Shown: one piece after another, positions 12,492-23,656 of the stretch
How the letters are laid out: the number at the start of each line of letters is the position of its first letter
Numbering within the stretch: the stretch's first letter is position 1
Source: Micrococcus luteus NCTC 2665
GTDB taxonomy: Bacteria > Actinomycetota > Actinomycetes > Actinomycetales > Micrococcaceae
Length of the DNA stretch: 32,000 nt
Reading direction: 5' to 3'
Assembly: GCF_000023205.1 (NCBI RefSeq)
Contig: NC_012803.1
Location: 1,110,001 to 1,142,000 of the forward strand
Program-made: the position numbers and the translations under genes
The notes under the pieces: generated by a model
The model's database searches: none
Told to the model about the DNA's origin: nothing
Seen by the model: only the letters and a program-made list of their open reading frames with translations

Positions 12492-12614
12492 GCCGGGGCA
12501 ACCCCCGGTGGTGGCGGGGTATTCCGACGCCGGCCGACTGCCGTGGCTTAACCCGTCCGGCCTCTCCCGTTGACTTTGCGGCATCACAGGTGGCAAGTGA
12601 GTGGGAGGGATTCA

Positions 12615-13859
12615 ATGCACGACGCCATGATGTTTTCCAGTGTGTCCCTATTGTGGGCAGGTCTATTCACACTGTCACGACGAGTGGAGCTTGCCGGGCT
12701 CCGGGATGGGCAGGGTGAAAGGGTTTGGTCCGGGCGGGGTGGCATGGTCCTCGCGATCGGTCTGGTCGTGGGGATGACCGGACTTCTCGTGGGCTCCGAG
12801 AACGTTGTTGCAATGGTGTTCTGCGGTCTTGGTCTCCTTCTGCTCGGGTGCTCGTTCCTCCTGATTCTCGTCATGCCCAAGGCCTCACAGCTGAGCGGTG
12901 AGGTGCAATGGCGACGAATCGTCAAGCACCGCCTACAGCATCGACTTTCCGCATTCCGACACGCGGGGCGTGAGTGGTGGCAGGCGATGTCGCGCCCGGC
13001 CATAGCGGGTGGAACGGCAGTAGCCCGTGGGCGCGTGAAGCGGCACGGGCCATCTCTGGAACCGCTGCTGTTCTTGGCCATCGTGTTGCTGGCGGGGGTT
13101 GTGGCACTTAGCGGCATGCTGTCGACATTGGTCCGCCTCTTCGATCCGCGGAATGGGGTAAACACCGCCATCGCTGGGACCGCGTTGGCGACCGCTTGGA
13201 TGGTGCTCCTGGGGCTTACCTTGTGGGCCCTCACCGTCACCTTGATCTTGGCGGTGATCGTGGGGCAGTGGCGGCCCGCGTACCGGGCCCATGTGCTTTC
13301 CGCCGTACAGGCGACAGTCGCCGGCACGGGTGCCGGTGCCGCCGTCGGGATATGTGCTGCTGTCATGGCGCCGGTCGGGTGCTACGCGGTCCAGGCGGCA
13401 GGAGTGGCGCGGATTTGGGACTGCCAGACTGCTTCGGTGGACCTCGGGGTGAGCCACATCCTGATGGTCAGCAGTTTCTTCAGTCTCTTCGGATTCATGG
13501 CCGGAAGTGTGCTCGGGACGACAAGCCTCATGGCCTGGCGAGGACGGCCCGCGTGGACGCGGATCGTCTACCCGTCGGTCTACCTCACGGTGTGGGGGCT
13601 GGTCCTGGCCACGGCCTCGCCTCGATCGATCCTGGAAGCGATTTCACAGGAGTCTGTGTCCACTGGGGTACCGGACATGTCACTGACGCGGGACCAACGC
13701 TTTGGTCAGGCTGGCGGTGACGCATGGCGGGTCGCCGTCGTCGAGATGAAAGAGGCAGGCGCGTGGCCGGTGGCGCCCGAGGCGGGGGCCCTCTGGTGGT
13801 GGAGTGCAGGTGTGGTGGTCCTTGCGCTCGTGTACCAAGTACGGGCGGAAGTTCTCTAG
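12615..13859 (+). CDS. Orphan polytopic membrane protein (about 10 hydrophobic segments), C-terminus truncated by transposon insertion
   Basis: ORF with GGGAGGG 5 nt upstream of ATG 12615. It has many hydrophobic helices and no motif I recognise. G+C and GC3 bias are visibly lower than in the neighbours, with frequent CTA, TTG, TCA, CGA, CTT and GGT codons. The stop codon TAG (13857-13859) is formed by TA of the target plus the first G of the IS end. Confidence 0.6.
   Translation: MHDAMMFSSVSLLWAGLFTLSRRVELAGLRDGQGERVWSGRGGMVLAIGLVVGMTGLLVGSENVVAMVFCGLGLLLLGCSFLLILVMPKASQLSGEVQWRRIVKHRLQHRLSAFRHAGREWWQAMSRPAIAGGTAVARGRVKRHGPSLEPLLFLAIVLLAGVVALSGMLSTLVRLFDPRNGVNTAIAGTALATAWMVLLGLTLWALTVTLILAVIVGQWRPAYRAHVLSAVQATVAGTGAGAAVGICAAVMAPVGCYAVQAAGVARIWDCQTASVDLGVSHILMVSSFFSLFGFMAGSVLGTTSLMAWRGRPAWTRIVYPSVYLTVWGLVLATASPRSILEAISQESVSTGVPDMSLTRDQRFGQAGGDAWRVAVVEMKEAGAWPVAPEAGALWWWSAGVVVLALVYQVRAEVL
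13851..13858. repeat. Left copy of the 8-bp target-site duplication GTTCTCTA flanking the composite transposon
   Basis: GTTCTCTA lies immediately outside the left IS terminus and is identical, in direct orientation, to 18753-18760. Confidence 0.75.
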
Positions 13860-13899
13860 GGTGAGTCCAATAGCGTGGTGTCAATTCCCGCGGGGTTCT

Positions 13900-13907
13900 C
13901 GTCGTCG
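13900..13907. repeat. Left copy of the 8-bp target duplication CGTCGTCG made by ISa
   Basis: CGTCGTCG directly abuts the ISa left end. The same octamer abuts the right end at 15342-15349. The uninterrupted ISb copy 2 has it only once (18704-18711, reverse complement). Confidence 0.8.
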
Positions 13908-15341
13908 GGGCGTGTCAACTTGTCTGTGTAAGCGGGGTGGTCACAGGTAGGGGTTGATCCGGTCGGGGTAGGCCGCGGCGAGCTGGGCGAGGGCCTGCTT
14001 CCAGTTCGTGACGGCCTGGCCTTCGACGAGCCGGCCCTGGGCTTTGCGCTGGCCGGCGGGTTTGCCCCGGTCCCGAGCGCGTTCGGCGGCGCGTTTGTCT
14101 TCGATGTTGCAGATCGCCAGCCAGAGCAGCTTCACCGCCGCCTCGGTCGAGGGGAAGTGGCCGCGGTTCTTGGTCACCTTCCGTAGCTGGAAGTTCAGCG
14201 ACTCGATGCTGTTGGTCGTGTAGATGACCTTGCGGAGCATGGGTGGGAACTGCAGGAACGGGATGAACCGCTCCCAGGAGTTCGCCCAGGTCGCGGCTGC
14301 AGACGGGTACTTCGTGCCGAGCTCGGAGGCCTCGAACTCGGCCAGCGCCTTCCTCGCGGTCTCTTCGTTGGGGGCAGTGTAGATCGGCTTCAGCGCGGCG
14401 GCGACCTTCTTGCGGTCCTGGTAGGCCACGAACCGCATCGCGGCCCGGATCAGGTGAACCACGCAGGTCTGGACCATCGAGTCCGGCCACGTCGCCTCGA
14501 TCGCCTCCGGCAGGCCCTTGAGCCCGTCGCAGCACACGATCAGCACGTCCTGTACGCCCCGGTTGGCGAGATCGGCGCAGACGTGGGCCCAGAACGCCGA
14601 GCCCTCGGTGTCCTGGACCCAGATCCCCAGCACGTGCTTGATGCCCTCGAGGTCCACGCCGACGGCGATGTAGGCGGCACGGTTGAGGACCTGGCTGTTC
14701 TCTCGGATCTTGATCCGGATTGCGTCGAGATAGATCACCGGATAGAACTCCTCCAGCGGCCGCGACTGCCACGCCAGGACCTCTTCGCTCACGGCGTCGG
14801 TGATGTTGGAGATCGTCTCGTGCGACAGGTCCGTGCCGATCGTGGAGGCCAGGTGGTGCTGGATGTCCCGGATCGTCATTCCGCCGGCATAGAGGCTGAT
14901 GATCATGTCATCCAGGCCCCCGAGGCGCCGCTGGCCCTTGGGCACCAGGCGCGGGGTGAACGACCCGCCCCGGTCTCGCGGGACGTCCAGCTCGATCGGC
15001 CCGACCTCGGACTCCACGGTCTTCGGGGTGGTCCCGTTGCGGGAGTTGGCGTGCTTCGGCGCCTCGCTCGAGCCCTTCTCGTAGCCCAGATGGCTGGTCA
15101 GCTCGGCCTGCAGGCCCCGCTCGAGCGCGGCCTTGACCAGCGCGGGCACGAACCCGCCGTCACCGGTGAGCTCGACGCCGCCCGCGTCGATCTGCGCGAA
15201 TAGGGAATCAAGCTGCCCTGAGGCTTTCAGCTGCTCGACCAGGTCCTGGCCCGAGGGCTCGCCTGGGTTCTTCTCGTCGGTCATGGTCATGATTCTTACC
15301 GTTCCTCTCGGTACGGCTTACACAGACCATCTGACACGCCC
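13908..15341 (-). mobile_element. ISa, a 1434-bp IS256-family insertion sequence nested in ISb copy 1
   Basis: Imperfect 26-bp terminal inverted repeats: GGGCGTGTCAACTTGTCTGTGTAAGC (13908-13933) and the reverse complement of 15316-15341, GGGCGTGTCAGATGGTCTGTGTAAGC (3 mismatches). It has a single transposase ORF and an 8-bp TSD. Confidence 0.85.
13941..15290 (-). CDS. IS256-family (Mutator-type) transposase of ISa
   Basis: 449 aa with typical IS256-family blocks: GFVPALVKAALERGLQAELTSHLGY, RNGTTPKTV, VPRDRGGSF.P.LVPK, YPVIYLDAI, CCDGLKGLPEAI, QTCVVHLIR and TTNSIESLN. Confidence 0.9.
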   Translation of the reverse strand: MTMTDEKNPGEPSGQDLVEQLKASGQLDSLFAQIDAGGVELTGDGGFVPALVKAALERGLQAELTSHLGYEKGSSEAPKHANSRNGTTPKTVESEVGPIELDVPRDRGGSFTPRLVPKGQRRLGGLDDMIISLYAGGMTIRDIQHHLASTIGTDLSHETISNITDAVSEEVLAWQSRPLEEFYPVIYLDAIRIKIRENSQVLNRAAYIAVGVDLEGIKHVLGIWVQDTEGSAFWAHVCADLANRGVQDVLIVCCDGLKGLPEAIEATWPDSMVQTCVVHLIRAAMRFVAYQDRKKVAAALKPIYTAPNEETARKALAEFEASELGTKYPSAAATWANSWERFIPFLQFPPMLRKVIYTTNSIESLNFQLRKVTKNRGHFPSTEAAVKLLWLAICNIEDKRAAERARDRGKPAGQRKAQGRLVEGQAVTNWKQALAQLAAAYPDRINPYL

Positions 15342-15349
15342 CGTCGTCG
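15342..15349. repeat. Right copy of the ISa target duplication CGTCGTCG
   Basis: See 13900-13907. Confidence 0.8.
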
Positions 15350-15417
15350 TAGACGGTGAAGGGCCATCGTGGGATGACCAGTTGTTTCCGCCAAGAAGCA
15401 AGAAGAGTGATCCCACG

Positions 15418-16686
15418 ATGACCCACAACCAGTCTGCCCTGACGACCCTGATCGGCGAAGTCCTCGCCGACCCCGACCTGGCCCACTCGGACGTGTTCCG
15501 GCGAATGCTGCAGGCCGGCCTGCAAGACCTGATCAACGCGGAAGCGACCGTGAAGATCGGCGCGGCCCGTTACGAGCGCACCCCGGAGCGGACCACCCGC
15601 CGTAACGGCACCCGGCCGAAGACCCTCGCGACCCCGGCCGGGGAGGTGGACCTTCAGATCCCGAAGCTGCGGGAGGGGTCGTTCTTCCCCTCGCTGCTGA
15701 GCCCGCGCCGCCGGGTCGACAAGGCGCTCTACGCGGTGATCTGTCAGGCCTGGATCGACGGCGTCTCGACCCGCAAGGTCGATCAGCTGGTGCGGGCGCT
15801 CGGCAACGACACCGGCATCAGCCGGTCGACGGTGTCGCGGATCTGCGGTGAGATCGACGAGGCGGTGCAGGAGTTCCTTTCCCGCCGGATCGATCACACT
15901 TGGTTCCCGTACCTGTTCCTCGACGCGACCTACCTCGACGTCCGCCACCGCGGCCGGGTCGCCTCGCAGGCCCTCGTCGTCGCCACCGGCGTGAGCGGCG
16001 AGGGCAGGCGGGAGATCCTCGGGATGGCGCTCGGTGACGCGGAGACCACCGACTTCTGGACCGAGTTCCTCCGCAGCCTCCGCGACCGCGGCCTGAAGGT
16101 CGCCACCGACGCCGACCCGCTCGGGGTTGCCCTGGTCACGTCCGACGCGCACGCCGGCATCAAGGCCGCGGTGAAAGCGATCCTGCCCGGCTCGGGGTGG
16201 CAACGATGCCGAGTGCATTTCGCGCGCAACGTGACCCAGAAGCTCGGCTCAGCACGCTCCAAGCCGGTCAACGCGCTGATCTCCACGATCTTCGCGCAGA
16301 CCACCCCCGAAGCGGTGATCGCGCAGTATCACCAGGTCACCGACAGTCTGCGCGGCTCGTTCCCCGAGATCACCGCCATGCTCGAGGCCGCCGAGCCGGA
16401 CCTCACCGGGTTCGCCCCGCTGCCCCGGGAGCACTGGCAGAAGGTCTGGTCCAACAACCCCATCGAGCGCCTCAACCGCGAGATCAAACGCCGCGCCGAC
16501 GTCGTCCAGATCTTCCCCGACCGCGACTCCGTGACCCGCCTGATCGGCGCGGTCCTCCAGGAACAACACGAGGAATGGCAATACGGCGAACGCCGCTACT
16601 TCTCCGACATCTCGATGCGCAAACTCGTCCACACCCTGCACGAACACACCGAACCCGCCCGCCCCGAGCTCTACCTCACCGCCTGA
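15418..16686 (+). CDS. IS256-family transposase of ISb, copy 1
   Basis: 422 aa starting MTHNQSALTTLIGEVL. Blocks: RNGTRPKTLATPAGEVDLQIPKLREGSFFPSLL, YLFLDATYLDVR, TSDAHAGIKAAV, WQRCRVHFARN and SNNPIERLNREIKRR. The translation is identical to that of 17367-18635. Confidence 0.9.
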   Translation: MTHNQSALTTLIGEVLADPDLAHSDVFRRMLQAGLQDLINAEATVKIGAARYERTPERTTRRNGTRPKTLATPAGEVDLQIPKLREGSFFPSLLSPRRRVDKALYAVICQAWIDGVSTRKVDQLVRALGNDTGISRSTVSRICGEIDEAVQEFLSRRIDHTWFPYLFLDATYLDVRHRGRVASQALVVATGVSGEGRREILGMALGDAETTDFWTEFLRSLRDRGLKVATDADPLGVALVTSDAHAGIKAAVKAILPGSGWQRCRVHFARNVTQKLGSARSKPVNALISTIFAQTTPEAVIAQYHQVTDSLRGSFPEITAMLEAAEPDLTGFAPLPREHWQKVWSNNPIERLNREIKRRADVVQIFPDRDSVTRLIGAVLQEQHEEWQYGERRYFSDISMRKLVHTLHEHTEPARPELYLTA

Positions 16687-16800
16687 CCACCACCCACCCA
16701 CAGGGAACAACGGAATGACACCACGCCACGGGACTTGACCCCCGCTGACGCAGTGCTGGACCTGCCACGCGCAACCCGAATCGAGGTCTTGTCCGGCACG

Positions 16801-17253
16801 CTAAAAGAGCAGGTCAAAGATAGCCATGGCCCGCTCCCAGTGCACGCTCTGCGGGTTTTTGACCTTAGGATCGAGGATTTTGAAGGCACGTGCCAGCGCC
16901 ACCGTCAGCCCGCCGACCAGGCGCGGCGACTCCGCTTCCATCTCATAGCTGTAGGCCAGGTCGAGCGGGGGCAGGGCTACCAGCTGATCCAGGATAGGCT
17001 GAAGCTCCAGTGCGGTGTCCAGCCCGTCGAAGGCCCGCATGCTCTCCTTGAAGCCGAGCGTCAGCGGCAGGTCGTGCAGCTGGATGACGTCTCGCTGGTT
17101 GTCCTTGGCCGTGGCCTGCGCCGCCAGCAACAGATCGTAGACCTTCTGCCGCACGAAATCGTTCAGCCGCGCCAGGTCGTTCTTGTCCACGTCCAGGCCG
17201 GCTGCCTCCCGAAAGAGCCGTTCAAACTTCGATACGCCGATGATTTTCGCCAT
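16801..17253 (-). CDS. DUF1931-family protein (predicted pseudodimeric histone-fold protein), cargo of the composite transposon
   Basis: 150 aa, MAKIIGVSKFERLFREAAGLDVDKNDLARLNDFVRQKVYDLLLAAQATAKDNQRDVIQLHDLPLT...LDPKVKNPQSVHWERAMAIFDLLF. The pattern FERxFRxAAGLDVDKND...YDLL...A..N.RD.I...DLP...LPPLDL...LDP..KNPQ..HWERA..IFDLL matches DUF1931 proteins as I remember them. A strong SD (AGGAGGAGA) lies 7-10 nt upstream of the ATG. Codon usage is less GC3-biased than in host genes. Confidence 0.7.
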   Translation of the reverse strand: MAKIIGVSKFERLFREAAGLDVDKNDLARLNDFVRQKVYDLLLAAQATAKDNQRDVIQLHDLPLTLGFKESMRAFDGLDTALELQPILDQLVALPPLDLAYSYEMEAESPRLVGGLTVALARAFKILDPKVKNPQSVHWERAMAIFDLLF

Positions 17254-17312
17254 AGTTCTATCTCCTCCTGTCAGACTTACAGTGACACTAATAGCACGGA
17301 CACCGGGGGCCG

Positions 17313-18752
17313 GGTCAAGTCCCGTGGCGTGGTGTCATTCCGTTGTTCCCTGTGGGTGGGTGGTGGTCAGGCGGTGAGGTAGAGCTCGGGGCGGGCGGGT
17401 TCGGTGTGTTCGTGCAGGGTGTGGACGAGTTTGCGCATCGAGATGTCGGAGAAGTAGCGGCGTTCGCCGTATTGCCATTCCTCGTGTTGTTCCTGGAGGA
17501 CCGCGCCGATCAGGCGGGTCACGGAGTCGCGGTCGGGGAAGATCTGGACGACGTCGGCGCGGCGTTTGATCTCGCGGTTGAGGCGCTCGATGGGGTTGTT
17601 GGACCAGACCTTCTGCCAGTGCTCCCGGGGCAGCGGGGCGAACCCGGTGAGGTCCGGCTCGGCGGCCTCGAGCATGGCGGTGATCTCGGGGAACGAGCCG
17701 CGCAGACTGTCGGTGACCTGGTGATACTGCGCGATCACCGCTTCGGGGGTGGTCTGCGCGAAGATCGTGGAGATCAGCGCGTTGACCGGCTTGGAGCGTG
17801 CTGAGCCGAGCTTCTGGGTCACGTTGCGCGCGAAATGCACTCGGCATCGTTGCCACCCCGAGCCGGGCAGGATCGCTTTCACCGCGGCCTTGATGCCGGC
17901 GTGCGCGTCGGACGTGACCAGGGCAACCCCGAGCGGGTCGGCGTCGGTGGCGACCTTCAGGCCGCGGTCGCGGAGGCTGCGGAGGAACTCGGTCCAGAAG
18001 TCGGTGGTCTCCGCGTCACCGAGCGCCATCCCGAGGATCTCCCGCCTGCCCTCGCCGCTCACGCCGGTGGCGACGACGAGGGCCTGCGAGGCGACCCGGC
18101 CGCGGTGGCGGACGTCGAGGTAGGTCGCGTCGAGGAACAGGTACGGGAACCAAGTGTGATCGATCCGGCGGGAAAGGAACTCCTGCACCGCCTCGTCGAT
18201 CTCACCGCAGATCCGCGACACCGTCGACCGGCTGATGCCGGTGTCGTTGCCGAGCGCCCGCACCAGCTGATCGACCTTGCGGGTCGAGACGCCGTCGATC
18301 CAGGCCTGACAGATCACCGCGTAGAGCGCCTTGTCGACCCGGCGGCGCGGGCTCAGCAGCGAGGGGAAGAACGACCCCTCCCGCAGCTTCGGGATCTGAA
18401 GGTCCACCTCCCCGGCCGGGGTCGCGAGGGTCTTCGGCCGGGTGCCGTTACGGCGGGTGGTCCGCTCCGGGGTGCGCTCGTAACGGGCCGCGCCGATCTT
18501 CACGGTCGCTTCCGCGTTGATCAGGTCTTGCAGGCCGGCCTGCAGCATTCGCCGGAACACGTCCGAGTGGGCCAGGTCGGGGTCGGCGAGGACTTCGCCG
18601 ATCAGGGTCGTCAGGGCAGACTGGTTGTGGGTCATCGTGGGATCACTCTTCTTGCTTCTTGGCGGAAACAACTGGTCATCCCACGATGGCCCTTCACCGT
18701 CTACGACGACGAGAACCCCGCGGGAATTGACACCACGCCACGGGACTTGACC
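17313..18752 (-). mobile_element. ISb copy 2 (IS256 family), intact, 1440 bp
   Basis: Perfect 25-nt terminal inverted repeat GGTCAAGTCCCGTGGCGTGGTGTCA at 17313-17337 and, as reverse complement, at 18728-18752. It carries a single transposase ORF. Confidence 0.88.
17367..18635 (-). CDS. IS256-family transposase of ISb, copy 2
   Basis: Start at the same MTHNQSALTT methionine as copy 1 (mirror of 15418). The longer track ORF (to 18941) runs through the IS end into flanking DNA and is not credible upstream of this Met. Confidence 0.9.
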   Translation of the reverse strand: MTHNQSALTTLIGEVLADPDLAHSDVFRRMLQAGLQDLINAEATVKIGAARYERTPERTTRRNGTRPKTLATPAGEVDLQIPKLREGSFFPSLLSPRRRVDKALYAVICQAWIDGVSTRKVDQLVRALGNDTGISRSTVSRICGEIDEAVQEFLSRRIDHTWFPYLFLDATYLDVRHRGRVASQALVVATGVSGEGRREILGMALGDAETTDFWTEFLRSLRDRGLKVATDADPLGVALVTSDAHAGIKAAVKAILPGSGWQRCRVHFARNVTQKLGSARSKPVNALISTIFAQTTPEAVIAQYHQVTDSLRGSFPEITAMLEAAEPDLTGFAPLPREHWQKVWSNNPIERLNREIKRRADVVQIFPDRDSVTRLIGAVLQEQHEEWQYGERRYFSDISMRKLVHTLHEHTEPARPELYLTA

Positions 18753-18760
18753 GTTCTCTA
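18753..18760. repeat. Right copy of the 8-bp target-site duplication GTTCTCTA
   Basis: It lies directly outside the right IS terminus (…GGGACTTGACC|GTTCTCTA). Confidence 0.75.
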
Positions 18761-18997
18761 TAGACGAGTCCCGCCCTCTACGCCCCACATGTAGTGGTCC
18801 GCGGGGGCCGGACACGCCGCTCGCAGACGTGGCGAACTCGACTTTCCGGCTGTGGGAACCCGGCCCCGAGATCTCCACCGGCTGTGGACAGTCGACCTCG
18901 GCCCTGGCGTGTCCCGCATGTCCGCGCGGATCGTCTCGCACAGCAGGGTGTGGACAGGATGGGCAGAGGATGGGGATACGTAACTACAGTGGTGTGA

Positions 18998-23367: not shown

Positions 23368-23552
23368 GGAGGGGTGCCGCCGGCCACTGGATGGCAGGGG
23401 TTTGTCATATAACGACACATGACGCGGGCGGAAGGCGGGGTCCAGCCCTCCGAGAGGTCGGGAAATGAGACCTGTGTCACGTCGTTCCTTCCACGGCGCC
23501 CCGGTGTGGTTGACTTTTTCCCTGCACCGGTGACGACGCCGGGGCACCCCTC

Positions 23553-23645
23553 ACCATCTTGAGCGGCCGAGAGATCTGGGTCGACGACGCCGCAGCAACC
23601 ACACCCCCACCGACCGGGCGCAGGTGCTAACGCCAGGACCGATGG
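23553..23645 (+). promoter_or_regulatory. SAM-I-clan (S-box / SAM-IV-like) riboswitch-like leader of metNIQ
   Basis: CCATC TTGAG CGGCCGAGAGATCTGGGTCGACGACGCCGC A GCAACC ... GGTGCTAACGCCAGG ... GATGG. There is P1 pairing CCATC/GATGG, and GAGAGAtCTGGgtCGAcGAcgCC resembles the P2 kink-turn block GAGGGAcUGGCCCgAUGAagCC. The conserved GCAACC and GGUGCUAA..CC elements are present. The SD GGAAAGGA and ATG 23657 follow directly. Confidence 0.6.
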
Positions 23646-23656
23646 AAAGGACGGGA

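Follow-up and report, generated by a model that had tools for sequence, protein, structure and literature searches.

A DUF1931 double histone-fold gene as the sole cargo of an IS256-family composite transposon in Micrococcus luteus NCTC 2665

In the chromosome of Micrococcus luteus NCTC 2665, a short gene of the protein family DUF1931 lies alone between two inverted copies of one insertion sequence (IS). This locus raises the question of whether the gene and the IS copies form a single mobile element, from where such a gene was obtained, and what a protein with a predicted histone fold could do on a transposon. All coordinates below are positions within the window, that is, the whole stretch of 32,000 nt of contig NC_012803.1 that was analyzed. 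Exact matching of the encoded protein also assigns the window to NCTC 2665 (LS483396.1). A first-pass annotation, made from the sequence alone, had proposed an IS256-borne composite with a DUF1931 gene as its only cargo, and the proposal was borne out by inverted, identical IS copies and by the outer direct repeat GTTCTCTA: the region 13859–18752 is a genuine composite transposon, inserted as one unit. It adds a new, so far undescribed member to the class of IS256 composite transposons; no description of a comparable transposon with DUF1931 cargo was found in the searchable literature, in agreement with the first-pass statement that a lone nucleoid-protein-like gene mobilised by IS256 elements was not known to have been described. 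The structural and evolutionary account as a whole is held here with high confidence.

Members of the IS256 family are generally about 1.3–1.5 kb long and have inverted repeats of about 25 bp and target duplications of 8–9 bp. The IS flanking the DUF1931 gene fits this family, with a Mutator-type DDE transposase (PF00872 in Pfam, E = 2e-119), a length of 1440 bp, terminal repeats of 25 nt and an 8-bp duplication. The two copies form an inverted repeat of 1400 nt that is 100% complementary (arms 15342–16741 and 17312–18711), and the spacing between the two IS ends is exactly 572 bp (16741–17312). The direct repeat GTTCTCTA brackets the entire unit, not each IS, and the inner flanks of the IS copies are unrelated; therefore, the composite is concluded to have moved as a unit. 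The random odds of matching 8 bases at both outer ends are about 4^-8 = 1.5e-5, and a duplication of 8 bp is what the IS256 family is known to produce. Duplicative inversion by a single IS was considered as another source of inverted copies and rejected, because it would leave no outer direct repeats. Thus, paired IS copies, outer terminal inverted repeats, intact transposase and a unit-flanking duplication are all found in the element (Table 1), and sister composites with other duplications are found in Actinomyces and Brevibacterium.

Table 1. Features of the composite transposon and of the insertion in which it lies (positions in the window).
Feature	Position	Strand	Description
Composite transposon	13859–18752		two inverted IS256-family copies around the DUF1931 gene
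Target-site duplication GTTCTCTA, left copy	13851–13858		8 bp, abuts 13859
Target-site duplication GTTCTCTA, right copy	18753–18760		8 bp, abuts 18752
IS copy A, outer (left) end	13859–13907	+	first 49 nt, with left inverted repeat GGGTGAGTCCAATAGCGTGGTGTCA
Nested ISMlu11 (IS256 family)	13908–15341	-	transposase at 13941–15290
IS copy A, remainder	15342–16740	+	transposase and right inverted repeat
IS copy A transposase	15418–16686	+	422 aa, Mutator-type, intact
IS copy A right inverted repeat	16716–16740		faces cargo
Cargo segment	16741–17312	-	572 bp, Rhodothermales-type DNA
DUF1931 gene, ACS30557.1	16801–17253	-	150 aa, ATG...TAG
Shine-Dalgarno sequence AGGAGGAGA	17261–17269	-	7 nt before ATG
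IS copy B	17313–18752	-	1440 bp, complete, 25-nt terminal repeats
IS copy B right inverted repeat	17313–17337		faces cargo; lies upstream of the DUF1931 gene, in the same orientation
IS copy B transposase	17367–18635	-	422 aa, intact, identical to that of copy A
IS copy B outer tip	18728–18752	-	right-repeat-type GGTCAAGTCCCGTG... replaces expected left repeat
Strain-specific insertion	12537–18786		6.25 kb replacing 13 bp (GCGGCGGGCTCCT) between acetyltransferase gene and nrdH
ORFan	12615–13859	+	414 aa, several hydrophobic stretches; GC3 0.745

The transposon region is foreign to the species M. luteus, in line with the first-pass view of a gene mobilised into an actinobacterial chromosome. 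Other M. luteus strains do not have it: in seven other M. luteus genomes with identical NrdH, the interval between the acetyltransferase gene and nrdH measures about 411 bp. From BLAST break points and junction sequences against these genomes, the insertion was delimited to 6.25 kb. The transposon accounts for 4.9 kb of it, and the rest is a 1.35-kb segment (12537–13858 and 18761–18786) with no obvious mobile-element ends. This segment contains an open reading frame (ORF) encoding a protein with no Pfam or PADLOC match; its last 11 codons were removed by the transposon, and its stop codon is supplied by the transposon junction. The two flanking accessions are the only ones in NCTC 2665 with exactly this transposase sequence, which suggests that the IS arrived together with its cargo.

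A resident chromosomal gene may also come to be flanked, by chance, by two independent IS insertions. Exactly this situation is seen for the same gene in Microbacterium lacticum, where a pair of 1630-nt IS1182-like copies in inverted orientation encloses it and, by comparison with uninterrupted contigs, each copy has a duplication of its own; judging from these junctions, the arrangement is a nascent composite. In the window, however, there is no similarity between the inner flanks, and an 8-bp direct repeat makes up the outer ones, which two independent insertions beside a resident gene would not produce; the gene is absent from other M. luteus strains, and its DNA is 99.3–99.8% identical to copies in other phyla. 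By the outer duplication together with the absence from relatives, the resident-gene explanation is refuted as far as the data allow, and hardly any probability can be left to it.

Besides the surrounding strain-specific segment, the first-pass annotation had overlooked two features of the transposon itself: ISMlu11 is nested in it, and IS copy B has an unusual outer tip. ISMlu11 is inserted 49 nt inside IS copy A, splitting its upstream region, and has its own 8-bp duplication CGTCGTCG at 13900–13907 and 15342–15349; it entered one arm after the composite had formed. At the outer tip of copy B, right-type sequence spans the first 14 nt and the remainder of the end is left-type, whereas copy A ends on its outer side in GGGTGAGTCCAATAGCG..., the family-typical left repeat found also in the Actinomyces, Brevibacterium and Kocuria copies. 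The sequence suggests a terminal conversion. As a result, the outer ends of the composite (13859–13883 and 18728–18752) are a pair of left and right types like those of a single IS, which may be relevant to mobility.

Within the 572-bp cargo segment, the one convincing ORF reported at the first pass was recovered; a 215-aa ORF on the plus strand (16735–17382) extends into both IS ends and was discarded as a shadow ORF. The near-perfect Shine-Dalgarno sequence and the AT-richer stretch noted upstream of it were both located, the latter, TATTAGTGTCACTGTAAG, directly upstream of the former. Codon usage does differ from that of the host, though less than the first-pass annotation had implied: the G+C content at third codon positions (GC3) is 0.83 in the DUF1931 gene against 0.94–0.98 in nrdH, nrdE and nrdF and 0.92 in the transposases, and the total G+C content is 0.62 for the gene against 0.70 for the whole window. 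Consensus scans of 16650–17420 gave neither a promoter nor a terminator. A hybrid promoter using TTGACC at the IS tip was not adopted, as it needs a 19-nt spacer and is unconserved in Actinomyces. Rfam gave no match for the cargo or its surroundings, the 5′ leader and the 3′ tail of the gene, as present in the window, showed no better folding than shuffled sequence, and a defence role was set aside for want of a PADLOC match. The encoded protein has one private change, L109S, and one widely shared change, A92V; its UniProt accession, which we guess to be C5CB24, was not found in any paper when expression evidence was sought.

The assignment to DUF1931, which had been made at the first pass, is now established by a match to PF09123 over profile positions 1–138 of 138 (E = 3.7e-57; 192.8 bits against a cut-off of 21.8). 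Sequence matches in the Protein Data Bank (PDB) include TTHA1479 of Thermus thermophilus (1WWI; E = 1.5e-45, 53% identity) and Aq_328 of Aquifex (1R4V; E = 1.6e-8). An AlphaFold2 model with six helices (predicted local distance difference test score, pLDDT, 89; predicted template modelling score, pTM, 0.84) was used for a Foldseek search, in which 1WWI was found with a template modelling (TM) score of 0.93 and 1R4V with 0.83, followed by viral, archaeal and engineered histone doublets. The cargo protein is thus confirmed as a pseudodimeric double histone fold, with both folds in one chain. Its isoelectric point (pI) is 5.17, with 18 K+R against 22 D+E, close to the 5.14 of TTHA1479 and far from the 9.6 of the archaeal histone HMfB.

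Such a fold naturally evokes a mobile nucleoid-associated or xenogeneic-silencing protein that binds DNA and modulates chromatin or silences foreign DNA in the new host; the first-pass annotation had speculated about xenogeneic-silencing-like DNA binding. Indeed, DNA-binding proteins such as HMk (1f1e) and viral doublets are among the histone doublets matched, and high expression of DUF1931 genes has been reported for Aquifex and Thermus (Hocher et al.). Nevertheless, the acidity of the protein is at odds with this framing, three recent papers describe the family as devoid of the residues required for DNA binding by histones (a statement of the literature, not of our own alignment), and the genes next to it in native genomes, described below, have chaperone and redox functions and do not belong to DNA metabolism. 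The bacterial histones HBb/Bd0055 and FtF share the histone-fold superfamily with the cargo protein, yet they are small basic DNA-binding singlets, whereas the latter, a 150-aa doublet with its low pI, does not conform to the HBb type of nucleoid histone. A general DNA-packaging role is unlikely because the protein is an acidic pseudodimeric histone fold, and a nucleoid or silencing function of any kind is improbable. What the family does instead is still called unclear in recent papers, including a 2026 review; the T. thermophilus homologue is reported to tolerate few transposon insertions.

Where, then, did the gene come from? The cargo was regarded at the first pass as a lone oddity; it turned out to be one instance of a module that has spread, at more than 99% identity, over at least three recipient phyla (Actinomycetota, Deinococcota and Pseudomonadota). 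DNA 99.3–99.8% identical to the cargo is present in Deinococcus xinjiangensis, D. antarcticus, two metagenome-assembled genomes (MAGs), Microbacterium lacticum, M. paulum, Brevibacterium linens MA5, Kocuria varians NBRC 15358, Actinomyces provencensis SN12 and Lysobacteraceae bacterium NML91-0213. Cross-assembly contamination was rejected as the source of these near-identical copies, since they have different junctions and lie on long contigs in different genomes. A chromosomal gene of Rhodocaloribacter litoris is 91.8% identical to the cargo in nucleotides and 94% in amino acids. At the protein level, the 90%-identity cluster includes Deinococcus, Microbacterium lacticum and R. litoris, and the closest named homologues beyond it belong to Rhodothermus and Rhodocaloribacter (69–75% identity). 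A conserved block, (hsp20)-DUF308-DUF5335-DUF1931-NfeD-type protease-rhomboid, contains the gene in R. litoris, in Rhodothermus profundi and in a Rhodocaloribacter MAG. The gene is thus syntenic across Rhodothermales chromosomes, and therefore a Rhodocaloribacter-like lineage is taken as its native home and, on these sequence comparisons, as the likely donor. The mobile module retains R. litoris-like DNA starting about 196 bp upstream of the ATG; the window cargo is a sub-fragment of this 0.7–1.0 kb module.

The uncut module is found next to IS91-family (Y2/HUH) transposase genes on metagenome contigs and in Deinococcus, M. paulum and Lysobacteraceae, and next to ends such as GGGCGGTTGAACTTCCTATACCC. 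These ends, GGGCGGTTGAACTTCCTATACCC and ...TTGAACTTCCTATACCC, we take to resemble the oriIS ends of IS91 and ISCR elements. A Y2 transposase gene with an oriIS-type end lies beside the module in the loci L016, L023, L024, L038 and L039 and is absent from the window. In Lysobacteraceae, the order is a variable end, the DUF1931 gene, the transposase gene and an oriIS-like end, a layout that, by analogy, would correspond to one-ended rolling-circle capture.

Tighter captures of the gene were found as well. In A. provencensis SN12 (L042, 6511–15650), an IS256-like element alternates with a 574-bp DUF1931 segment in a direct tandem array that has at least three identical gene copies and an outer 8-bp repeat, CCAGAGAC. 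The IS copies of the array are 87–94% identical to the window IS, with up to about 8% divergence among themselves; since the array contains a run of N, its copy number is uncertain and the IS mosaicism may be partly an assembly artefact. In B. linens, two direct 1425-bp ISL3 copies surround a 567-bp segment together with a 29-nt remnant of an IS256 left repeat, and the unit has an outer 8-bp repeat, AGACGAAC; a 595-bp contig of K. varians is the same inner piece. In coordinates of the locus L011, the upstream junctions of the three tight captures fall at 192, 202 and 209, and the downstream junctions at 763 in the window and at 775 in both others. The Micrococcus and Actinomyces versions each keep native bases that are missing from the other; therefore, neither of them derives from the other. 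All three upstream cuts fall inside a strong hairpin that lies directly upstream of the gene in the uncut module (-41 kcal/mol, z -4.5), so that the hairpin is cut away while the whole ORF and its ribosome-binding site are kept.

Two further observations concern individual contexts of the module. Brevibacterium (L037, 7960–7975) and Kocuria (L036, 1–16) share a 1-nt deletion, located some 30 nt before the ATG, that changes TATTAGT to TATAGT; the resulting hexamer is a better -10-like sequence, and the deletion could be an expression-enhancing change. In Deinococcus (L020, 1138–3310; L023, 1230–5752), the DUF1931 module with an IS91 right-end remnant is accompanied by a 206-aa ORF without Pfam match, a baeRF (bacterial eRF1-like) gene, a full IS91-family transposase gene and a ParE toxin gene, which have the look of additional cargo carried by the same IS91 array.

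The survey of these contexts also bears on another first-pass suggestion, that the protein is a transposition accessory factor which aids the flanking transposase, for example in assembly of the synaptic complex or in target choice. The gene is always beside transposases, and it points in the same direction as the IS256 transposase gene upstream of it in Micrococcus as well as in Actinomyces. The transposases involved are, however, of four mechanistically unrelated types (DDE Mutator/IS256, DDE ISL3, DDE IS1182-like and HUH Y2/IS91), and the orthologues are ordinary syntenic chromosomal genes in Rhodothermales, with DUF1931 matches in more than 540 species-representative genomes in our scan. 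Moreover, the sequence cluster of the IS transposase (797 members) far exceeds that of the cargo protein (116 members). The suggestion was dropped accordingly, its probability being very small.

For the function of the protein, the neighbourhoods of native homologues are informative. The survey covered 74 loci of species representatives with homologues of 54–72% identity, plus R. litoris. An hsp20, clpB or dnaK gene lies within the 8-kb flanks at 41 of the 74 loci and within 3.5 kb at 30; chance proximity to such genes was put at about 1%, which is our own estimate from their small number per multi-megabase genome and not a control set. A thioredoxin gene is nearby at 18 loci, and at 19 a gene for a thioredoxin-reductase-like oxidoreductase with a cyclic-nucleotide (cNMP)-binding domain is present, often 30–40 bp away on the same strand. 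For example, on the Rhodococcus plasmid pDK4 the order is dnaK-grpE-dnaJ-cbpM-clpB-trxA-Zn finger-FAD (flavin adenine dinucleotide) oxidoreductase-DUF1931, all co-directional, and on a Trichormus plasmid dnaK, thioredoxin, hsp20 and groESL genes lie beside the homologue. These neighbourhoods point to a role in heat-shock/redox proteostasis, not in chromatin. The association was not found in the literature passages that mention DUF1931.

A related arrangement recurs in many Actinomycetota (L088, L094, L101, L104, L114, L115 and others): about 30–40 bp upstream of DUF1931, on the same strand, there is a gene for a 550-aa fusion protein, made up of a cyclic-nucleotide-binding domain and a thioredoxin-reductase-like oxidoreductase; thioredoxin and clpB genes are often near. 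From the gene order, the pair looks like a candidate conserved operon.

The explanation that best unites these data is as follows. A Rhodocaloribacter-like chromosomal gene would first have become linked, as part of a module, to IS91-family rolling-circle elements, and the module would then have been recaptured repeatedly by pairs of IS, of IS256 type in Micrococcus and Actinomyces, of ISL3 type in Brevibacterium and Kocuria, and IS1182-like in Microbacterium lacticum. The Micrococcus cargo is a trimmed piece of the module, not one taken from the M. luteus chromosome; the composite inserted as a unit, generating the GTTCTCTA duplication, with a resident ISMlu11 jumping into one arm later. Loss of the hairpin may mean removal of a terminator and thereby access for transcription from the IS side, and expression in the new hosts may arise from such transcription or from the short upstream stretch that was retained. 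The protein would serve the heat-shock/redox proteostasis network as an accessory factor, and a modest benefit in stress tolerance would explain both the repeated mobilisation and the intact retention. The data directly show how the element is built, its target duplications, the origin and spread of the cargo, the fold and the gene neighbourhoods; the route of expression, the stress function and the selective benefit are inferred from them. Taken as a whole, this explanation, with the composite, the Rhodothermales origin, serial capture and an accessory role in proteostasis, is regarded as probable, with moderate confidence. Its functional part, a portable proteostasis or stress factor, is plausible and falls somewhat short of probable. 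A bolder version regards a double histone-fold protein acting on its own as a portable determinant of tolerance to heat, desiccation or oxidative stress, which is now spreading, in the manner of a resistance gene, through at least three recipient phyla by serial capture, in the order IS91, IS256 and ISL3, with an IS1182-like capture starting as the fourth; this version is possible but rather doubtful.

Several observations weigh against this explanation. A consensus scan gave no sigma-70 promoter in the 59 bp upstream of the gene. The cargo DNA is not found among PLSDB plasmids, INPHARED phages or IMG/VR viral contigs, and a search for a vehicle with the window IS returned as its sole relative a sequence of 83% identity on an Arthrobacter plasmid. 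For the ORFan that served as the target, no uninterrupted homologue was found among 5.8 billion proteins, the sole match being the NCTC 2665 lineage, and the transposon may have entered M. luteus inside the larger 6.25-kb fragment instead of transposing there. The gene is the only one on the mobile module, whereas in native genomes it has chaperone partners. Finally, the 12 substitution events among the mobile copies (11 nonsynonymous and one synonymous) fit neutrality (p = 0.32) and differ from those on the R. litoris branch (Fisher p = 3.5e-4), where 9 nonsynonymous and 22 synonymous events give a ratio of nonsynonymous to synonymous rates (dN/dS) of about 0.14. Very recent divergence is known to inflate dN/dS even under selection; therefore, the substitution counts do not refute a benefit to the host.

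The same counts are what would be expected of a neutral hitchhiker, a gene which happened to lie in an IS-rich region such as an IS91 array and is carried by IS without host benefit, its ORF being intact because the spread is recent. Transposases crowd every context of the gene, and it moves without its native partners, in line with this alternative. On the other hand, the ORF is intact in 12 of 12 genome or MAG contexts (one metagenome contig, L016, has no stop codon), three independent tight captures keep the ORF and ribosome-binding site and drop the hairpin, at least three copies are present in A. provencensis, and the gene persists in three recipient phyla; a raised dN/dS, moreover, is expected of recent divergence in either case. 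Neutral carriage is therefore a possibility to be taken seriously, if on balance an unlikely one. With regard to chromatin, proteostasis is favoured because of the linkage to hsp20, clpB, dnaK and thioredoxin genes together with the near-identical copies in different phyla.

Elsewhere in the region, the nrdE-nrdF spacer is variable among other M. luteus genomes, with a TIR-domain gene in some (L026, 9912–10934; L033, 4643–5626) and a Type ISP restriction-modification enzyme in one (L029, 10337–14246); the spacer of NCTC 2665 has neither. An ordinary S-adenosylmethionine (SAM) riboswitch (RF00162, 46.5 bits) lies at 23551–23648(+), upstream of methionine ATP-binding cassette (ABC) transporter genes.

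Among known systems, the closest in architecture is Tn4001, the classic IS256 composite, in which IS256 copies flank a single passenger gene. The M. luteus element likewise has an inverted pair of IS256-family copies, one short passenger segment and an 8-bp target duplication, but its cargo is a DUF1931 histone-fold gene instead of a resistance gene, ISMlu11 interrupts one of the arms, right-repeat-type sequence occupies one of the outer tips, and the same cargo has been captured elsewhere by ISL3, IS1182-like and IS91-family elements. Rolling-circle capture of genes is known from ISCR elements, and Y2-transposase genes with oriIS-like ends abut the module in Deinococcus, Lysobacteraceae, Microbacterium and MAG contigs; the window, by contrast, retains no IS91 sequence, its module having been recaptured by IS256 copies. 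With TTHA1479 and Aq_328 the cargo protein has in common the full-length Pfam match, the fold and the acidity, whereas these two are chromosomal in thermophiles and the M. luteus copy is recently transferred and IS-borne in a mesophilic actinobacterium. In concept, the nearest parallel may be the transmissible locus of stress tolerance (tLST) or locus of heat resistance (LHR) of Proteobacteria, multi-gene islands with small heat-shock proteins (sHSPs) and a Clp-type disaggregase that confer transmissible heat and stress tolerance. The likeness lies in mobile DNA with proteostasis genes in place of resistance genes and in the plasmid-borne dnaK-clpB-trx clusters with DUF1931 homologues. The window element is nevertheless not an island of this type: it has a single cargo gene without sHSP or Clp partner, and the chaperone linkage is seen only with homologues in other genomes.

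Together, these loci record how a chromosomal gene of thermophiles turned step by step into a mobile module carried by multiple IS types; the nascent, completed, nested and amplified stages can each be seen in a separate genome. For M. luteus, NCTC 2665 being well studied and naturally transformable, the locus amounts to a natural gain-of-function experiment, in which one strain has the gene on a transposon and its close relatives are without it. Crystal structures of DUF1931 proteins have been known since 2004–2005. Should the bolder version of the explanation hold, bacteria would have their first mobile histone-fold gene, and DUF1931, an orphan family for 20 years, would gain a function in proteostasis, not in chromatin.

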